DNA of 45,751 nucleotides from a virus. Its lineage: Duplodnaviria > Heunggongvirae > Uroviricota > Caudoviricetes. The stretch is from the IMG/VR virus record IMGVR_UViG_2537561830_000004; one strand, 5' to 3'. The notes below the pieces were generated by a model. It had not been told where the DNA came from, searched no databases, and saw only the letters and a program-made list of their open reading frames with translations. The position numbers and the translations under genes are program-made. The stretch's first letter is position 1. Each line of letters begins with the position of its first letter. This document shows, in pieces, positions 20,489-45,751 of this stretch.

Positions 20489-22588
20489 ATGGGTTTTTCA
20501 TCAGCCCGAAATTTGGGAAGGGACATATCGGCAGGATTTTCCCCACCACGTCGCATGCCGATTTCGGAGGCTGTTAAAAAATTCATGCGTGTTCCCAAGG
20601 GGGCTGGTAACTCGGTGCCATGGGATCCTGAACTGACACCCTACATCATTGAGCCCATGAACTGCCTGGCATCGCGTGAATACGATGCGGTGATTTTTGT
20701 TGGTCCTGCGCGAACAGGGAAGACCATTGGTCTGATCGATGGATGGATTGTCTATACCATCGTTTGCGATCCTTCGGACATGCTCGTTGTGCAGATGACC
20801 GAAGATAAGGCCCGCGAGCATTCTAAAAAGCGCCTCGACAGAACGTTCAGAAGCAGTGCGGCGGTAAAGAAAAGAATGAGTCCACGTCGTAACGACAATA
20901 ATGTCCATGATAAGACGTTCAGGGATGGCTCGTTCCTTAAAATTGGTTGGCCCTCGGTCAACATTATGTCGTCGTCGGATTACCGGTTTGTCGCCTTAAC
21001 CGATTACGACCGTTTTCCGGAGAATATCGACAGCGAGGGTGATGGTTTCTCCCTGGCCTCAAAACGTACCACCACATTTATGTCCGCCGGGATGACTCTG
21101 GTGGAGAGCTCGCCGGGACGTGACATCTGCGACAGCAAATGGCGACGTAAGTCGCCTCATGAAGCGCCACCGACGACTGGTATTCTTTCCCTTTACAATC
21201 GTGGTGACCGCCGCCGCTGGTACTGGCCATGTCCGCACTGCGGTGAATATTTTCAGCCAGCCATGGATGCCATGACCGGCTACCGTAATGAACCGGATCC
21301 CTTTAAAGCCAGTGAGGCGGCGTATCTACTTTGCCCGCACTGCAGCGGCATTATCACTGCGGAGAAAAAGCGTGAGCTCAATAGTGCAGGAGTCTGGTTG
21401 CGTGAAGGGCAGGTCATTGATCGTAACGGCAACGTTTCCGGTGAACCGCGCCGCTCCCGTATCGCCAGTTTCTGGATGGAAGGGCCAGCTGCTGCGTATC
21501 AGACCTGGGCGCAACTGGTTTACAAATTACTGACTGCAGAACAGGAGTATGAAGCGACAGGAAGCGAAGAAACACTCAGGGCGGTTATCAACACCGACTG
21601 GGGATTGCCTTATCTTCCTCGTGCCAGCATGGAGCAACGAAAAAGTGAATTGCTTGAGCAGCGGGCAGAGCCAGTTCCTTCCCGCAGTGTGCCGGATGGC
21701 GTTAATTTCCTTGTGGCGACAGTGGATGTGCAGGCGGGACGTCATCGCCGTTTTGTGGTTCAGGTAACGGGCTATGGCAGCCGTGGCGAACGCTGGATTA
21801 TTGATCGTTACAACATCACGCAGTCATTGCGCGGTGACAGCGACGGGGAGAGCCAGCGAATTGATCCGGCCAGCTATCCGGAAGACTGGGATGTCCTGCT
21901 GACGGATGTTTTTCATAAAAGCTGGCCGCTGGCCTCCGACCCTTCTCAACAAATGCGACTGATGGCAATGGCGGTGGACTCCGGCGGTGAAGACGGGGTC
22001 ACTGATAATGCCTATAAATTCTGGCGTCGTTGCCGTCGTGATGGCCTTGGTAAACGTATTTACCTGTTTAAGGGCGACAGCATCCGGCGCGCAAAACTGA
22101 TCACCCGTACATTCCCTGATAACACCGGACGAACGGGCCGACGGGCGCAGGCCGCAGGTGATGTGCCGCTCTGGCTTCTTCAGACGGATGCCCTGAAAGA
22201 CCGGGTGAATAACGCGTTATGGCGTGACTCGCCAGGTCCCGGCTATGTGCATTTCCCTGACTGGCTGGGGAGCTGGTTTTACGACGAACTGACGTATGAA
22301 GAGCGGAGCAGTGACGGGAAATGGAGTAAGCCGGGTCGCGGTGCCAACGAAGCTTTTGACCTGATGGTGTATGCCGAGGCTCTGGTCATTCTGCATGGAT
22401 ACGAAAAGATCCGCTGGCCGGATGCACCGGAGTGGGCGAGCCGGGAAACCTGGCTGGAGTGTGTCCCGGACAGTACCGAACCGTCACCCTCACCGGAACC
22501 GGTATCCACGCCTGTTAAAAAACAAAAACGGAAGAAAACAGTAACTGACGATGTTAACCCCTGGCTGACTTCCGGAGGATGGTTATGA
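20489..22588 (+). CDS. A: terminase large subunit (lambda gpA family)
   Basis: 699 aa; Walker A GPARTGKT; size and position as lambda A. Confidence 0.9.
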   Translation: MGFSSARNLGRDISAGFSPPRRMPISEAVKKFMRVPKGAGNSVPWDPELTPYIIEPMNCLASREYDAVIFVGPARTGKTIGLIDGWIVYTIVCDPSDMLVVQMTEDKAREHSKKRLDRTFRSSAAVKKRMSPRRNDNNVHDKTFRDGSFLKIGWPSVNIMSSSDYRFVALTDYDRFPENIDSEGDGFSLASKRTTTFMSAGMTLVESSPGRDICDSKWRRKSPHEAPPTTGILSLYNRGDRRRWYWPCPHCGEYFQPAMDAMTGYRNEPDPFKASEAAYLLCPHCSGIITAEKKRELNSAGVWLREGQVIDRNGNVSGEPRRSRIASFWMEGPAAAYQTWAQLVYKLLTAEQEYEATGSEETLRAVINTDWGLPYLPRASMEQRKSELLEQRAEPVPSRSVPDGVNFLVATVDVQAGRHRRFVVQVTGYGSRGERWIIDRYNITQSLRGDSDGESQRIDPASYPEDWDVLLTDVFHKSWPLASDPSQQMRLMAMAVDSGGEDGVTDNAYKFWRRCRRDGLGKRIYLFKGDSIRRAKLITRTFPDNTGRTGRRAQAAGDVPLWLLQTDALKDRVNNALWRDSPGPGYVHFPDWLGSWFYDELTYEERSSDGKWSKPGRGANEAFDLMVYAEALVILHGYEKIRWPDAPEWASRETWLECVPDSTEPSPSPEPVSTPVKKQKRKKTVTDDVNPWLTSGGWL

Positions 22589-39118: not shown

Positions 39119-41602
39119 GTGAATATGGCAGTAAAGATTTCAGGTGTACTGAAAGACGGTGCAGGTAAACCGGTACAGAACTGTACAATCCAGCTGAAAG
39201 CAAAACGTAACAGCACCACGGTGGTGGCGAACACGGTGGCCTCAGAAAATCCGGATGAAGCCGGGCGTTACAGCATGGACGTTGAGTACGGTCAGTACAG
39301 CGTTATTCTGTTGGTGGAAGGCTTCCCGCCATCGCATGCCGGGACCATCACCGTGTATGAAGACTCACAACCGGGTACGCTGAATGATTTTCTCGGTGCC
39401 ATGACGGAGGATGATGTCCGTCCGGAGGCACTGCGCCGCTTTGAACTGATGGTGGAAGAGGTGGCGCGTAACGCGTCCGCAGTGGCACAGAACACGGCAG
39501 CCGCGAAGAAGTCAGCCAGCGATGCCGGCACATCAGCCCGTGAGGCGGCAACCCGTGCAACTGATGCTGCAGGCTCAGCACGTGCAGCCAGCACGTCAGC
39601 CGGACAGGCCGCGTCGTCGGCTCAGTCAGCGTCTTCCAGCGCAGGAACAGCATCAACAAAGGCCACTGAAGCATCAAAAAGTGCTGCCGCCGCAGAGTCC
39701 TCAAAAAGCGCGGCAGCTACCAGTGCCAGTGCCGCGAAAACGTCAGAAACGAATGCGGCAGCGTCACAAAAATCTGCAGCCACTTCTGCATCCGCCGCGA
39801 CCACAAAGGCGTCAGAAGCTGCCACCTCGGCACGGGGTGCGGCGGCCTCAAAAGAGGCAGCGAAATCATCAGAAACGAATGCATCATCAAGTGCCAGTAA
39901 TGCAGCTTCCTCGGCAACGGCGGCAGGAAATTCCGCGAAGGCGGCAAAAACGTCCGAGACGAACGCTAAGTCTTCTGAAACAGCAGCGGGACAGAGCGCC
40001 TCAGCTGCGGCAGGTTCAAAAACAGCGGCTGCGTCGTCTGCCAGTGCCGCGTCAACAAGTGCCGGGCAGGCCTCAGCCAGTGCCACCGCCGCCGGAAAAT
40101 CGGCAGAAAGCGCCGCATCATCCGCTTCAACAGCCACAACGAAGGCGGGCAAAGCCACTGAGCAAGCCACTGCAGCAGCGAGGTCTTCTTCTGCAGCAAA
40201 AACCTCTGAAACAAATGCAAAGACTTCAGCAGACAATGCTGCTTCCTCTAAGGCGGCAGCCGCATCGTCAGCCAGTTCTGCGGCGTCATCGGCATCATCT
40301 GCGTCTGCTTCAAAAGATGAGGCGACCAGACAGGCGTCAGCAGCGAAGGGCAGCGCCACGACGGCATCCACGAAAGCAACAGAGGCGGCAGGCAGTGCGA
40401 CGGCAGCATCTCAGAGCAAAACTGCTGCTGAATCCGCTGCGACCCGTGCGGAAGCTGCTGCTGATCGTGCTGAAGAGATTGCCGGTGCAGTTGCGATGGA
40501 AGACGCAAGCCTTACAACTAAAGGTGTTGTGAAACTTAGCAGTGCTGTTGATAGCACCAGTGAATCGCTGGCCGCAACGCCAAAAGCAGTTAAAGCAGCC
40601 AATGACAATGCGAATAGCAGGGTGCCATCTAACCGAAAAGTTAACGGTAAAGCACTGACTGCGGATATCACTTTAACCGCCGCGCATGTGGCTGCTTTTG
40701 CCAGAAGGGCAACGGATACGTATGCCGATGCGGATGGTGGCGTTCCCTGGAATGCCGAATCAGGCGCTTACAATGTCACCCGCTCTGGCGACAGCTATAT
40801 TCTGGTTAACTTCTATACCGGAGTCGGAAGTTGCCGGACCCTGCAGATGAAGGCGCATTACAGAAATGGTGGTCTGTTCTACCGTTCTTCAAGAGACGGT
40901 TATGGTTTTGAAAGTGGTTGGGAGCAGGTTTACACGACTGGATTTAGACCTCAGCCGGCTGATATAAACGCACCAACCGCTGCCGCCGGATGGTTAAATA
41001 GTGGTAACGGAACAGCATTTACGACTGCTCAGTTTATAACGTGGCTAAATAATCAGGGTGCATTTTCAAACAAATATTGGATTGCACGGTGCTCATGGGT
41101 TTACGCCAACAATAATTATATAGACGACACTGGTTGCGGTAGGATCGATCTATCTGGTTCCGTGATTGAGGTGTTTAGTAATAAGGCAACAAGCAATTAC
41201 ACTATTCGTGTTACAACGACAACAACATCGGGTCATGGTGGTGTTAATAATGCGGAATTTATTTATGTGTACAATGGAAGTGGTTATGCGCCAGGCTGGC
41301 GTCGTTCTTATAACACCAGAAACAAACCAACAGCTTCTGATGTAGGAGCATTACCGCTTTCAGGTGGCACATTATCTGGGGGGGTAACGTCTTCTGGTGA
41401 GATCGTTTCAAAATATGCAAATGGTTTCCGCATTGCTTACGGTAACTATGGGTTCTTTATCCGTAATGACGGCGGCAGCACATATTTCATGCTAACAGCA
41501 TCAGGAGATACGTTAGGTTCATGGAACAGTTTGCGACCGATTACAATTAATAATACCAGCGGTGTTGTGTCCATTGGTAATGAACTGCGCCCCAAAGGTT
41601 AG
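39119..41602 (+). CDS. stf: side tail fibre (Stf) N-terminal portion, ORF interrupted by an IS insertion
   Basis: 827 aa ORF with Ala/Ser-rich repeat region (KTSETNA units); reading frame runs into the IS left inverted repeat and stops at 41602. Confidence 0.75.
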   Translation: MNMAVKISGVLKDGAGKPVQNCTIQLKAKRNSTTVVANTVASENPDEAGRYSMDVEYGQYSVILLVEGFPPSHAGTITVYEDSQPGTLNDFLGAMTEDDVRPEALRRFELMVEEVARNASAVAQNTAAAKKSASDAGTSAREAATRATDAAGSARAASTSAGQAASSAQSASSSAGTASTKATEASKSAAAAESSKSAAATSASAAKTSETNAAASQKSAATSASAATTKASEAATSARGAAASKEAAKSSETNASSSASNAASSATAAGNSAKAAKTSETNAKSSETAAGQSASAAAGSKTAAASSASAASTSAGQASASATAAGKSAESAASSASTATTKAGKATEQATAAARSSSAAKTSETNAKTSADNAASSKAAAASSASSAASSASSASASKDEATRQASAAKGSATTASTKATEAAGSATAASQSKTAAESAATRAEAAADRAEEIAGAVAMEDASLTTKGVVKLSSAVDSTSESLAATPKAVKAANDNANSRVPSNRKVNGKALTADITLTAAHVAAFARRATDTYADADGGVPWNAESGAYNVTRSGDSYILVNFYTGVGSCRTLQMKAHYRNGGLFYRSSRDGYGFESGWEQVYTTGFRPQPADINAPTAAAGWLNSGNGTAFTTAQFITWLNNQGAFSNKYWIARCSWVYANNNYIDDTGCGRIDLSGSVIEVFSNKATSNYTIRVTTTTTSGHGGVNNAEFIYVYNGSGYAPGWRRSYNTRNKPTASDVGALPLSGGTLSGGVTSSGEIVSKYANGFRIAYGNYGFFIRNDGGSTYFMLTASGDTLGSWNSLRPITINNTSGVVSIGNELRPKG
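39700..40270. repeat. imperfect tandem coding repeats within stf
   Basis: recurring GC(G/A)(G/A)C(G/A)AAA(A/T)C(G/A)TC(A/C)GA(A/G)AC(G/A)AA(T/C)GC units at about 39733, 39862, 39937, 40195. Confidence 0.45.
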
Positions 41603-41627
41603 ACACCAGACCAAAAACTGAGGATGC

Positions 41628-42134
41628 ATGGAAAAGTTTTCATTGGAGTTCAAAAAGGTAGTATCAGAAAAGTACCTGGAGGGAGAGTTGAGTCTGAAAT
41701 CTGTAGCAAGGATGTACGGTATCAGTCCCTGCACAGTAAGAAAATGGGCTTATGCCTATCGGGAACATGGGATAAGCATACTTACGGGTAAAAAAGGACG
41801 CTATTCTGCTGAGTTAAAACTCACAGTAGTAAAAGAAGTCGTGGATGACTGTTTTTCTGTTCGTGAAGTAGCGGTAAAACACGGAATACCAGCCTTTGGT
41901 ACTGTATGCAACTGGCTTGAAAAATATAGAAAATATGGCGAAGATGCTTTCATTCGAAAAAATAAAAAGAGTATTCCTGTGCCGGATAAAAGCGCCATTT
42001 CAGCACCACCACTACCAACATTAACCAAAGATGAGAGAGAAGAACTTGAACAACTCAGGGTCGAGAATGCCTACTTAAAAAAGCTGAAAGCCTTGGTTCA
42101 GCAGAAAACATGCTCAACGTTCAGGAAAAAGTGA
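41628..42134 (+). CDS. IS3-family transposase OrfA (HTH)
   Basis: 168 aa with HTH segments; ends with LKKLKAL leucine-zipper region containing the A AAA AAG slippery site. Confidence 0.8.
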   Translation: MEKFSLEFKKVVSEKYLEGELSLKSVARMYGISPCTVRKWAYAYREHGISILTGKKGRYSAELKLTVVKEVVDDCFSVREVAVKHGIPAFGTVCNWLEKYRKYGEDAFIRKNKKSIPVPDKSAISAPPLPTLTKDEREELEQLRVENAYLKKLKALVQQKTCSTFRKK

Positions 42135-42973
42135 GCATTGTGAATGAACTAAGGCAGGAATGGCCATTGTCCCGATTGTTAATTGTTTCCGGGCTGCCCC
42201 GGAGTACATTTTACTATCATGTCAGACGGCTTGCTGCTCCTGACCGGTATCAGTCTGCCAGAGCGCTTGTGCTGAAAATTTATCACCAGCACAAAGGCCG
42301 CTATGGTTACAGACGCATCAGGCTGGCATGTCGTAACGAGGGGGTTTTACTTAATGGTAAAACCGTCAGAAAACTGATGAAGGAACTGGGTATTAGCAGC
42401 CTGATCCGCGTTAAAAAATACCGTTCATATAAAGGAGAACAAGGACGAATTTGCGATAATCTCCTGAAACGCAATTTTGATGCAAAACGCCCCAACGAGA
42501 AGTGGGTTACAGATGTCACTGAATTTAAAGTGAATGGCAAGAAGCTGTATTTGTCGCCCGTCATGGATCTTTATAATGGAGAAATAATTTCCTATAACCT
42601 CGCCACTCGCCCTCAACCTTCAATGGTGCAGACTATGCTTACGGATGCGCTGAAACAGCTGTCGAAAGATGAACACCCCATACTGCACAGCGATCAAGGT
42701 TGGCAATATCAGATGTCCCGGTGGCAACGATGGTTAAAGGATAGCGGTATAGTCCAGAGTATGTCTCGCCGGGGAAATTGTCTTGATAATGCAGTTATAG
42801 AGAGCTTTTTTGGAACATTGAAATCAGAATGTTATTACCTCAATGAATATAAAAATGTGGAGGACTTAAAGCGAGACATCATTGATTACATAAACTATTA
42901 TAATCAATTGAGGATAAAGGAAAAACTTGGCGGTCTTAGCCCGGTACAATATCGATTGAGTCAGGCTGCATAA
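42110..42973 (+). CDS. IS3-family transposase OrfB (DDE catalytic domain), in -1 frame relative to OrfA
   Basis: 287 aa in the -1 frame, overlapping OrfA by about 25 nt; DDE-type integrase-like sequence. Confidence 0.8.
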
Positions 42974-43002
42974 GTTGTCCAAGATCTGGGGCGCAGTTCA
43001 GT

Positions 43003-44121
43003 AATGGACTAAATGTTACTGGTGGCGTTAATGGTAGTTTGAACGGTAATGCTTCAACAGCTACGAAGTTGCAAACAGCGAGAAACATCAATGGTGTTAA
43101 GTTTGATGGCTCAGGCGATATCAACATTAATACATTGGTATCTCGTGGCCGAGTTACGGCGTTAAGCGGCTCTACTCAAGGCACTGCTGGCATTCAAATG
43201 TACGAGGCGTACAACAATAGCTACCCGACCATGTATGGCAACGTATTGCACATGAAAGGTGCGAGTGCTGCTGGTGAGGGCGAGTTGCTTATTGGCTGGA
43301 GTGGTACGAGCGGTGCACATGCGCCAGTTTTCATTCGCTCACGAAGAGATAACACAGATGCGGCATGGTCGCCGTGGGCGCAGCTTTACACCTCGGCTCA
43401 TCCTCCTGCAGAGTTTTATCCAGTCGGTGCACCAATCCCGTGGCCATCAGATACCGTTCCGTTTGGTTATGCCCTGATGCATGGGCAGACTTTTGACAAA
43501 TCTGCATACCCGAAACTTGCAGCCGCTTATCCGTCAGGCGTGATCCCTGATATGCGTGGCTGGACGATTAAGGGCAAACCTGCCAGTGGTCGCGCCGTAT
43601 TGTCTCAGGAACAGGACGGCATTAAATCGCACACCCACAGCGCCAGCGCATCCAGTACGGATTTGGGGACGAAAACCACATCGTCGTTTGATTACGGCAC
43701 TAAATCCACGAATAACACCGGGGCGCATACGCACAGTCTGAGTGGCTCTACGGGGTCTGCCGGTGTTCATACTCATGGTAATGGTATTCGTTGGCCAGGA
43801 GGCGGCGGTTCTGCGTTAGCATTTTATGATGGCGGTGGGTTCACTTATGTCCAGAATTCACAGTATCAAGTAAGCCCGGAGACTTCTTCCTATAGATCGT
43901 ATTATCAACGTATTCAGACACAGTCAGCAGGTGCTCATACCCACTCGCTGTCTGGTACTGCAGCAAGTTCTGGCGCACATGCACATACTGTAGGTATTGG
44001 TGCGCATACGCACTCCGTTGCGATTGGTTCACATGGACACACCATCACCGTTAACGCTGCGGGTAACGCGGAAAACACCGTCAAAAACATCGCATTTAAC
44101 TATATTGTGAGGCTTGCATAA
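43003..44121 (+). CDS. stf: side tail fibre (Stf) C-terminal portion, separated from the N-terminal part by the IS
   Basis: in frame with the stf N-terminal part once the IS and one GTAA copy are removed; His-rich HTHS/HxH repeats typical of Stf/gp37 C-termini; internal ATG at 43039. Confidence 0.7.
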
Positions 44122-44705
44122 TGGCATTCAGAATGAGTGAACAAGCACGGACCATAAAAATTTATAATCTGCTGGCCGGAACTAATGAATTTATTGGTGA
44201 AGGTGACGCATATATTCCGCCTCATACAGGTCTGCCAGCAAACAGTACCGATATTGCACCACCAGATATTCCTGCTGGCTTTGTGGCTGTTTTCAACAGT
44301 GATGAGGCATCGTGGCATCTCGTTGAAGACCATCGGGGTAAAACGGTTTATGACGTAGCTTCCGGCGACGCGTTATTTATTTCTGAACTCGGCTTATTAC
44401 CGGAAAATGTTACCTGGTTATCGCCGGAAGGGGAGTTTCAGAAGTGGAACGGCACAGCCTGGGTGAAGGATACGGAAGCAGAAAAACTGTTCCGGATCCG
44501 GGAGGCGGAAGAAACAAAAAACAACCTGATGCAGGTAGCCAGTGAGCATATTGCGCCGCTTCAGGATGCTGCAGATCTGGAAATTGCAACGGAGGAAGAA
44601 ACCTCATTGCTGGAAGCCTGGAAAAAGTATCGGGTGTTGCTGAACCGTGTTGATACATCAACTGCACCTGATATTGAGTGGCCTACGAACCCTGTCAGGG
44701 AGTAA
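44121..44705 (+). CDS. tfa: tail fibre assembly protein Tfa
   Basis: 194 aa; ATGGCATTC start overlapping stf stop; conserved C-terminal region repeated again at 45592-45751. Confidence 0.8.
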
Positions 44706-44719
44706 TCATTGGGATTATG

Positions 44720-44768
44720 CCGCAGCACGTCTTAAGCAAGAACGTGCTGCGGTTGGATGCTATTTTTT
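44720..44768 (+). terminator. hairpin terminator between convergent tfa and methyltransferase genes
   Basis: CCGCAGCACG (44720-44729) pairs perfectly with CGTGCTGCGG (44743-44752); T-rich tract follows. Confidence 0.45.
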
Positions 44769-45428
44769 CCCTGAAGCGGAAAACATTACTACAGTACCTT
44801 GAACCTTGGTTTTAACATTCTCGAAATGCTCTGAGAGTATATGTGTTAAGCCTTCTTCGGAATCTTTTGTGTTTGAAAAGATGCCTTTCTGATTGTAAAT
44901 GCGCATCAGTTTTTGACCGAAGCTATTGTGCACAACTCCATCGCCAAGAATTGTGGCTCCGTATAGAGTTCCATCGTCAGTTAAGGCCTGCGCCGCATTG
45001 CGTATTACACAGCTTTTTGTAGATATATTTCCAGGCAGGCAGTGAAGAAGGTAAAACATGGAAATGGAATCAAATTGACCATGTAACGCCGCGGGATAAG
45101 GTTCAAAAACATCATGGCTAATTTTATGTTTAATTTTTGATTCCCCAGCCCTTGTAGATGCCGCGTTCAGGCTAGCTTCGTTCAAATCCATTAAAGATAT
45201 CAGACTACTCTCAGGTACGTGAGTAAGGTAAAACCCAGTTCCAACACCAATATCCAGATGGTTGTTACCTAAATGTTCCAGAAAGTGTGGAAGAAGGTGT
45301 TCCTTTGTAGGACATCCCCATGCAAGCCGATTTGATACTCCCAAAACCCACCAGTCATAAAGCTTTAGGGTAAGTGGTGTGTAAATTTTAGCCCCATCAT
45401 CTGTGTTTTTTTTCATTGATTTCACCAT
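44760..45428 (-). CDS. class I SAM-dependent methyltransferase (cargo gene between tfa repeats)
   Basis: 222 aa; motif I LDIGVGTG; about 40% GC; opposite strand to the tail genes. Confidence 0.65.
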   Translation of the reverse strand: MVKSMKKNTDDGAKIYTPLTLKLYDWWVLGVSNRLAWGCPTKEHLLPHFLEHLGNNHLDIGVGTGFYLTHVPESSLISLMDLNEASLNAASTRAGESKIKHKISHDVFEPYPAALHGQFDSISMFYLLHCLPGNISTKSCVIRNAAQALTDDGTLYGATILGDGVVHNSFGQKLMRIYNQKGIFSNTKDSEEGLTHILSEHFENVKTKVQGTVVMFSASGKK

Positions 45429-45484
45429 GTTATAGTTTTATTTGTGAATTAAATCAATTATGGCGATGAATTACAAGGGGTTAA

Positions 45485-45751
45485 ATGCTGCCGCAGCATA
45501 GCGATATTGAAATAGCCTGGTATGCTTCGATACAGCAGGAGCCGAATGGCTGGAAGACCGTCACCACACAGTTCTACATCCAGGAATTCAGTGAGTATAT
45601 TGCGCCACTGCAGGATGCTGTAGATCTGGAAATCGCAACGGAGGAAGAAAGATCGTTGCTGGAGGCATGGAATAAATATCGGGTATTGTTGAATCGTGTT
45701 GATACATCAACTGCACCTGATATTGAGTGGCCGACTTCACCTGCAGAGTAA
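45485..45751 (+). CDS. small protein carrying a Tfa C-terminal domain (tfa fragment or variant)
   Basis: 88 aa; C-terminal 55 aa about 90% identical to the Tfa C-terminus ([43 protein letters not shown]). Confidence 0.5.

Follow-up and report, generated by a model that had tools for sequence, protein, structure and literature searches.

The right end of the stretch of DNA analysed here (the window, 45,751 nt in full) carries a methyltransferase gene that is flanked on both sides by tfa sequence, and the best explanation overall, to which we assign a probability of roughly 0.75, is an orfX-methyltransferase moron that underwent one orfX-tfa join and later exchange of its tfa ends. According to this model, the original partner of the methyltransferase would have been orfX, a small divergently transcribed gene, and one non-homologous join would have linked orfX codon ~36 to codon ~140 of the tfa of another phage, making the 88-aa chimeric ORF that is called tfaX in K-12. 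With a complete lambda-type tfa just upstream, the locus would then look like a gene "between two tfa 3' ends", and both tfa copies would later have been used as homologous crossover points. Alternative orders of events, i.e., with the orfX-tfa join first, or with a right-side replacement in the phage Ayreon and in Citrobacter first, cannot be proved from the extant sequences. Here, we document the anatomy of the locus, the chimera and the decay of this fragment in relatives, as well as the dispensability and wide distribution of the methyltransferase.

The last 1.7 kb of the window consist of tfa, a GC-rich hairpin, a minus-strand methyltransferase ORF and an 88-aa plus-strand ORF, with the following features.

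44121–44705, plus strand: tfa, complete, lambda type, 194 aa, directly after stf (Caudo_TAP, PF02413, 3.8e-44)
44529–44686, plus strand: left repeat copy, tfa codons ~137–189, conserved C-terminal domain
44719–44753, no strand assigned: GC-rich hairpin between the convergent tfa and methyltransferase genes (RNAfold)
44760–45428, minus strand: class I SAM-dependent methyltransferase, YbcY family, phrog_2132, 222 aa as annotated
45429–45484, minus strand: divergent promoter spacer, AT-rich, 56 nt, 26.8% GC, with promoter hexamers from a consensus scan
45485–45590, plus strand: 5' part of the 88-aa ORF, apparently from orfX (phrog_3893 family; complete orfX 79–80 aa)
45578–45751, plus strand: right repeat copy (repeat 45578–45735) with its own stop codon, Tfa C-terminal domain of another tfa allele fused to orfX, a putative tfaX-type scar

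Prophage context

A prophage nearly identical to the window occurs between potB and potC in E. coli NCCP 13717. Its gene order starts with int and xis, continues with early, lysis, head and tail genes, and closes with J, lom, stf and tfa. In the annotation of a 100%-identical genome, tfa is named tail fiber assembly protein, the final phage feature is a tfa fragment, and potB begins 233 bp beyond it. No invertase was found among the ORFs of the window, and no recombinase was found beyond the tfa fragment in the 100%-identical genome, where potB is the next gene. Therefore, with potB only 233 bp past the fragment and no invertase, the block represents the right-hand terminus of a lambdoid prophage that has integrated between potB and potC. 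A 14-nt repeat present at both prophage ends is a candidate att core. The first-pass annotation, made from the sequence of this stretch, had described the methyltransferase as accessory cargo, which agrees with its position at the att-proximal end of the prophage; the region is an accessory, b-region-like right end.

The lambda b region and the lambdoid morons (lom, bor, ea47/ea31/ea59) served as the basis for comparison. Like these, the methyltransferase is an accessory gene with a predicted promoter of its own, a hairpin at its end and a lower GC content (41.0%, versus 50.6% for the window), and it has been deleted in Ayreon, so that both its base composition and its dispensability are those of a moron. 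As in the lambda b region, its place in the circular genome is between the tail fibre genes and attP, and its orientation is the same, i.e., against the late tail operon and in line with int and the pL operon. Unlike the products of lambdoid morons and b-region genes, its product is an enzyme and not an outer-membrane or exclusion protein.

Direct repeats of the tfa 3' end

A repeat search of the window returned a direct pair of 158 nt at 44529–44686 and 45578–45735, and blastn aligned the two copies over these 158 nt at 87.3% identity, with 20 mismatches and no gaps (E = 1.9e-54). The direct repeat of ~160 bp and ~90% identity that had been described previously was thus confirmed by alignment, with 89% identity over the narrower core given at the time; its coordinates were placed ~13 nt to the right of the real start of homology and extended over the final ~19 nt ahead of each stop codon, where the two copies share no homology. 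Beyond the coding 3' ends the copies are not homologous, and the similarity breaks off about 10–19 nt ahead of each stop codon. Translated in frame, each copy gives the conserved C-terminal portion of Caudo_TAP (PF02413). Within the Tfa family, the C-terminal domain is conserved and the N-terminal fibre-binding domain is variable, a pattern that agrees with the Pfam matches of the full tfa and of the fragment.

Comparison of the right copy with the left gave a dS of 0.43 and a dN/dS of 0.17. The differences are mainly synonymous, and the two copies are therefore likely to represent two old, long-separated functional alleles and not a recent local duplication. The allele that donated the right copy was sought among the tfa genes of the phage collection and not found, the best full-length tfa being 92% identical. 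A search of 5426 genomes for the "pop-out" product (the full tfa with the 3' end of the right copy) yielded no full-length match above 93.3%, a weak negative, with crossovers further right being hard to see.

Both tfa ends also match the Rfam family RF02111 "IS009", at 44464–44662 with 225 bits and at 45508–45711 with 112.5 bits, the latter just below the gathering score of 117. Both matches fall within protein-coding tfa sequence, and nothing here suggests an RNA function for these ends. IS009 has previously been left out of an ncRNA set and placed in the group of RNAs expected to have ribosome footprints, e.g., those located within genes (PMC5331693).

Composition and decay of the 88-aa ORF

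Our analysis indicates that the right-hand "tfa" ORF (45485–45751, plus strand) is a chimera of an orfX start and a Tfa C-terminal domain. Residues 31–87 match Caudo_TAP positions 75–131 of 131 (E = 3.9e-25) and residues 3–37 match phrog_3893 (E = 3.2e-07); in BLASTP, the N-terminus is 53% identical over 36 aa (E = 3e-12) to a 79-aa ORF of Klebsiella phage Kp4882-3, which is followed there by a UmuD-like gene. The N-terminal fibre-binding domain is missing, and just 30 residues of the phrog_3893/orfX type precede the C-terminal domain, compared with a length of ~175–200 aa for a complete Tfa. In the NCBI annotation, too, the ORF is a tail fiber assembly protein that is incomplete and has no N-terminus.

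In Citrobacter freundii, a full 80-aa orfX homologue stands beside a 90%-identical methyltransferase in divergent orientation. Citrobacter L025 shares 92% nucleotide identity with window positions 44748–45571 and contains neither tfa repeat, the homology ending just where each repeat would start. Ayreon (recorded host E. coli K12) has lost the segment corresponding to window positions 44797–45457, and what it keeps is the left tfa remnant together with the hairpin and 12 codons at the 3' end of the methyltransferase gene. Its orfX continues as in Citrobacter, but with CAG changed to TAG, and no right-hand tfa sequence is present.

Among related loci, the fragment carries a variety of lesions. 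A change of TGG to TGA in the DLP12, Kati and PhiR68_2 fragments yields the 61-aa TfaX, and Kati has an additional TAG stop. The 2G7b fragment contains a 7-bp deletion that shifts the frame, and in ev243 and PhiR26_1 the 3' end has been replaced by foreign sequence. Because related loci carry such stops, a frameshift or replaced ends, the fragment appears not to be maintained as a protein and is best read as a recombination scar.

It could nevertheless be argued that the 88-aa OrfX-TfaC product is a functional protein, e.g., a free Tfa C-terminal domain that helps or poisons the fibre assembly of its own or of a superinfecting phage. The ORF is intact in the window, it encodes the complete conserved C-terminal domain, it belongs to a PHROG of its own with a length of exactly 88 residues (phrog_2341, matched over 88/88; like phrog_2132, a family without functional annotation), and TfaX is annotated as a protein in K-12. 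However, five of the six relatives examined for this ORF carry independent inactivating changes, the fragment is without the domain that binds the fibre, and the sole promoter that has been proposed for tfaX has its -10 element over the ATG. We consider a functional OrfX-TfaC very unlikely and retain the interpretation as a scar.

These observations alter the picture of a gene "inserted between" two tfa ends, as drawn in the first-pass annotation: the left one is simply where the complete resident tfa ends, and the right one is an orfX fusion. The fusion itself, the tfa-free gene pair in Citrobacter, the occurrence of a left remnant only in Ayreon, and the decay in relatives together argue that the right copy is the scar of a non-homologous join. 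The recognition of the tfaX-type ORF as a probable orfX-Tfa chimera, and of a methyltransferase-orfX pair that occurs without tfa flanks, is modestly new.

A constant core with variable flanks

We compared seven loci, including the window, DLP12, ev243, 2G7b, PhiR26_1, Kati and PhiR68_2. A core at ~44720–45709, which extends from the hairpin through the methyltransferase and the spacer into the 88-aa ORF and takes in the first two thirds of the latter, is common to ev243, 2G7b, PhiR26_1, Kati and PhiR68_2 at 97–99% identity. On the left, the core directly follows a lambda-type stf-tfa in the window, PhiR26_1 and DLP12; it follows unrelated fibre genes and a ~120-nt tfa 3' remnant, beginning at window position 44585, in ev243 and 2G7b; and in Kati and PhiR68_2 it is preceded by stf-tfa, a Pin-type invertase and ynaE, with homology restarting within the hairpin at 44720. 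On the right, the shared sequence breaks off within the fragment, at 45709 or 45731, and the flanks consist of potB, of a hydrolase gene and ompT, or of appY and ompT. DLP12-type copies additionally show an allele switch near 45660. That one core is joined to at least three left and at least three right contexts is likewise modestly new.

On either side of the core, points at which the neighbours change are located within conserved tfa 3' sequence; these ends therefore appear to serve as homologous crossover points for module exchange, and crossovers in both tfa copies would explain how a single core came to be linked to varied left fibre genes and right cargo. The locus would thus offer a small and clean case of lambdoid mosaic formation, in which one non-homologous join was followed by repeated homologous exchange at the Tfa C-terminal domain.

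Such junctions also lend some support to the proposal of the first-pass annotation that recombination between tfa genes acquired the cargo, i.e., that the methyltransferase cassette was captured and moved by a double crossover in the flanking tfa 3' ends. Foreign sequence meets conserved tfa at 44585 on the left (ev243, 2G7b) and at 45709 or 45731 on the right, and the repeats are long and alike enough for RecA or Red recombination. However, the right repeat is attached to a truncated orfX that moves together with the methyltransferase, the core has no tfa flank in Citrobacter and only a left remnant in Ayreon, and the left boundary in Kati and PhiR68_2 lies in the hairpin after pin-ynaE, outside tfa. 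Homologous tfa exchange accounts for the later reshuffling and not for the origin. The part of the proposal that concerns tfa 3' ends as crossover points can be kept, and the part that derives the locus from insertion between tfa ends is not supported; we regard capture by double crossover as unlikely and prefer the non-homologous orfX-tfa join followed by exchange.

The invertase in Kati and PhiR68_2 raises a different scenario, namely that the block was once an invertible tail-fibre segment of the Mu G/P1 C/e14 P type and has degenerated, with the second tfa piece as an alternative U'. The enzyme, of the PinQ/PinR-type serine invertases, lies between tfa and the methyltransferase in these two phages, and an invertase is found at the corresponding genome position in HK225. 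The locus thus resembles the Mu G/Gin, P1 C/Cin and e14 P/Pin systems in having duplicated tfa-type sequence beside a fibre gene and, in relatives, a Pin-type invertase at that place. It differs from them in that the tfa repeats are direct and not inverted (the repeat search found no relevant inverted pair bounding the segment), a second stf variable end is absent, the prophage has no invertase and potB comes next, and the right copy is joined to orfX and not to an inverted fibre gene. The locus is not a member of these systems, and on the grounds of repeat orientation and of the absence of an invertase, both in the window and beyond it, we rejected the scenario as extremely improbable, in agreement with the earlier statement that this is not an invertible fibre segment.

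The YbcY-type methyltransferase

The methyltransferase ORF scores above the cut-offs for four Pfam families (Methyltransf_12, Methyltransf_23, Methyltransf_25 and Methyltransf_11), which, together with its low GC content, substantiates the previous description of a minus-strand class I methyltransferase gene of lower GC. It matches phrog_2132 over its full length (E = 7.9e-157, residues 5–222 on profile positions 1–218). Homologues and PHROG 2132 begin at Met5 of the window ORF, and the -10 element of the predicted ybcY-type promoter abuts the annotated ATG; for these two reasons, the true protein is probably 218 aa long and starts with Met5 at 45416.

The protein has a Rossmann-like alpha/beta fold with a seven-stranded sheet. 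In an alignment of 27 sequences with 56–90% identity, LDIGVGTG (residues 58–65) and D81 are invariant in all homologues and represent motif I and the acidic residue that ends strand 2, and D106, in an invariant H105-D106 pair, is among the SAM-binding motifs. The same alignment revealed an invariant set specific to the family, consisting of YDWWVL, N33, W37, C39, YLxHCLxG and YNxKGIFxN. The Rossmann-type fold, the GxGxG motif I, the acidic post-I residue and the single domain of about 220 aa are shared with UbiG, UbiE/Coq5, juvenile hormone acid methyltransferase, DhpI, BelI and PsmD, and the N-terminal YDxW helix with UbiE/Coq5-like enzymes; the protein differs from those small-molecule methyltransferases in its identity of just 11–21% and in its own invariant set. 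Sequence searches reach only juvenile-hormone-acid methyltransferase and UbiG (E = 1e-3 to 1e-5). In NCBIfam, RquA and CpaM matches lie far under the cut-offs and no curated equivalog was matched. Structural matches form a flat plateau at 11–18% identity, with the tRNA-modifying CmoA, Trm9 and METTL6 only slightly lower.

Homologues with 72–90% identity occur in Citrobacter, Salmonella and one further assembly, and those with 56–68% identity are solitary chromosomal genes in Salmonella, Enterobacter, Klebsiella and Yersinia. The homologues in Aeromonas and Citrobacter are solitary as well, and across all these genera the neighbourhoods are unrelated, with some of the genes beside IS elements. 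No conserved partner gene was found in the neighbourhoods of nine homologues (56–90% identity), hence no operon clue. Because the related chromosomal homologues are solitary and without conserved neighbours, the methyltransferase is best explained as a host-derived, AT-rich, solitary "moron" gene.

A core phage function would be an alternative role for the gene, i.e., DNA modification against restriction, or methylation of a virion or host macromolecule that is needed for growth. Methyltransferases are common in phages, and the gene order, in which this one is co-oriented with pL and int, would permit read-through from pL after excision. On the other hand, the sequence does not contain the motif IV (D/N/S)PP(Y/F/W) of N6-adenine/N4-cytosine DNA methyltransferases, no DNA methyltransferase is among the top structural matches, and the sole match to the defence-system models of PADLOC, mad2, is insignificant (E = 0.003). 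Moreover, a DNA methyltransferase is already encoded by another gene of the prophage, and the nearest non-phage relatives are solitary chromosomal genes. Finally, the deletion in Ayreon indicates that the methyltransferase is dispensable for phage growth, and other related phages without the gene exist. A core function therefore seems highly improbable, and the gene is better regarded as accessory cargo.

No substrate could be assigned from the sequence, NCBIfam or structural matches or from the gene neighbourhoods, in keeping with the first-pass annotation, which named none, and in the literature ybcY occurs only in lists. From the features above, we infer that the enzyme methylates a small molecule (a metabolite, a lipid head group or a toxic compound) in the lysogen and that it is kept as fitness cargo and not for phage growth. 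With ~70% of E. coli genomes carrying the gene, the target of the enzyme is the one aspect of the locus that is of wider interest. A bolder and quite unlikely idea is that the YbcY enzyme is a true lysogenic-conversion enzyme that alters host fitness by methylating one particular small compound (a toxin, an antibiotic, a signal or a lipid head group of the envelope) or, less likely still, that OrfX-TfaC, as a free Tfa C-terminal domain, interferes with the tail-fibre assembly of competing lambdoid phages.

Predicted promoter and hairpin

The divergent spacer contains TTGATT-17-TATAAC on the minus strand (45457 to 45429) and a second candidate promoter, TTAACC-16-CATAAT, on the same strand (45484 to 45457). 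A genomic SELEX study of constitutive RpoD promoters found an RpoD-holoenzyme site, flagged for H-NS, in the ybcY/tfaX spacer of K-12 and proposed TTGATT-17-TATAAC for ybcY (PMC3946193). The exact hexamers of this K-12 promoter occur in the window spacer, and a sigma-70 promoter belonging to the methyltransferase itself is the best explanation of the predicted elements.

For the hairpin between the convergent genes, RNAfold of the 75-nt segment 44701–44775 gave -28.6 kcal/mol on the plus strand and -25.4 kcal/mol on the minus strand. A plus-strand T-run does not adjoin the stem, and the methyltransferase strand has none; a consensus terminator scan did not report the hairpin, which was missed through the loop-size limit of the scan. 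The hairpin probably forms the transcript end for both tfa and the methyltransferase.

Comparison with K-12 and distribution

The arrangement is already known as the annotated tfaD-ybcY-tfaX of the K-12 prophage DLP12 and is an ordinary prophage cargo locus. With tfaD (+), ybcY (-) and tfaX (+) (b0561–b0563), DLP12 has the same elements as the window in the same order and orientation, it is 96.7% identical in nucleotide sequence to window positions 44267–45731, and it has the same promoter hexamers. In K-12, the loss of 2 nt at the Met5/A8 tract has made ybcY a pseudogene, and the change of TGG to TGA leaves a tfaX product of just 61 aa, whereas both ORFs are intact in the window. The blocks also differ in what follows them, i.e., appY-ompT in K-12 and the att site at potB in the window. 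For annotation purposes, the block is best labelled a "ybcY-type methyltransferase moron plus tfaX-type scar", and labels that suggest a novel element or a system for fibre switching should be avoided.

Of 5426 complete E. coli genomes, 3832 (~70%) carry the methyltransferase gene at ≥95% identity, with up to four copies each, and the entire block of stf end, tfa, methyltransferase and fragment was found in 1495 genomes. Isolated lambdoid phages with the gene are ev243 and 2G7b (both of the genus Nesevirus), PhiR26_1, PhiR29, PhiR30, PhiR49, PhiR68_2, Kati and Turner, and the annotators of the PhiR phages labelled its product "putative uncharacterized protein YbcY".

Insertion sequences in the two prophage copies

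In the window, the side tail fibre gene, stf, is split by an IS3-family insertion sequence at 41587-43000.

Features of the IS3-family element and its surroundings in stf
39119-41602 and 43039-44121, parts of stf on either side of the element
41578-41605 and 42976-43003, terminal inverted repeats
41628-42134, orfA (HTH_Tnp_1/HTH_28)
42110-42973, orfB (rve)

The E. coli NCCP 13717 prophage, otherwise identical, lacks this element in stf. Because stf is interrupted, the window's copy of the phage probably does not make side fibres. The terminase large subunit gene of the NCCP 13717 prophage holds an IS66-family element (tnpA, tnpB and an ISCro1-like transposase), which is absent from the window at the corresponding site (~22512-22520), a position marked by a 9-nt overlap between the alignments of the two sequences.

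Annotation of the tfa 3' ends and the adjacent hairpin

The 3' ends of both the complete tail fibre assembly gene, tfa, and the second, C-terminal tfa piece match Rfam RF02111 'IS009' (44464-44662, 225 bits; 45508-45711, 112.5 bits; gathering score 117). This 'RNA family' falls on the protein-coding, conserved Tfa C-terminal region; therefore, its matches in prophages probably represent coding sequence, not sRNA genes. The hairpin region between tfa and the methyltransferase gene (44689-44751) gave a weak, sub-threshold match to CssrB (RF02799; 32.6 bits, E 3e-4, gathering score 76). The NCBI annotation also places here a 45-aa 'hypothetical protein' (WP_001309429.1, 44678-44815), which covers the hairpin together with the stop codon of tfa on one side and the 3' end of the methyltransferase gene on the other, and is likely a spurious ORF call.

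The methyltransferase gene and its neighbours in relatives

An A8 tract immediately follows Met5, the probable start codon of the methyltransferase (45403-45416, minus strand: ATGAAAAAAAACACA), and the K-12 ybcY pseudogene lacks 2 nt precisely at this tract. The tract may be a slippage-prone site that turns the gene off.

In phages Kati (L005, 7767-8357) and PhiR68_2 (L008, 5002-5592), a PinQ/PinR-type serine invertase lies between tfa and the methyltransferase gene, as does a ynaE-family gene, a placement resembling that in the Rac prophage. The divergent neighbour of the methyltransferase gene, orfX, encodes 79-80 aa assigned to phrog_3893, with no Pfam match. In Klebsiella phage Kp4882-3 (L017, 3004-3571) the next ORF after orfX is UmuD-like (S24 peptidase), and in Citrobacter freundii (L025, 4307-4941) orfX precedes UmuD-like fragments. 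Phage HK225 carries a gene weakly similar to orfX between dinI and an invertase. Taken together, these neighbourhoods may represent a small SOS-related accessory module.
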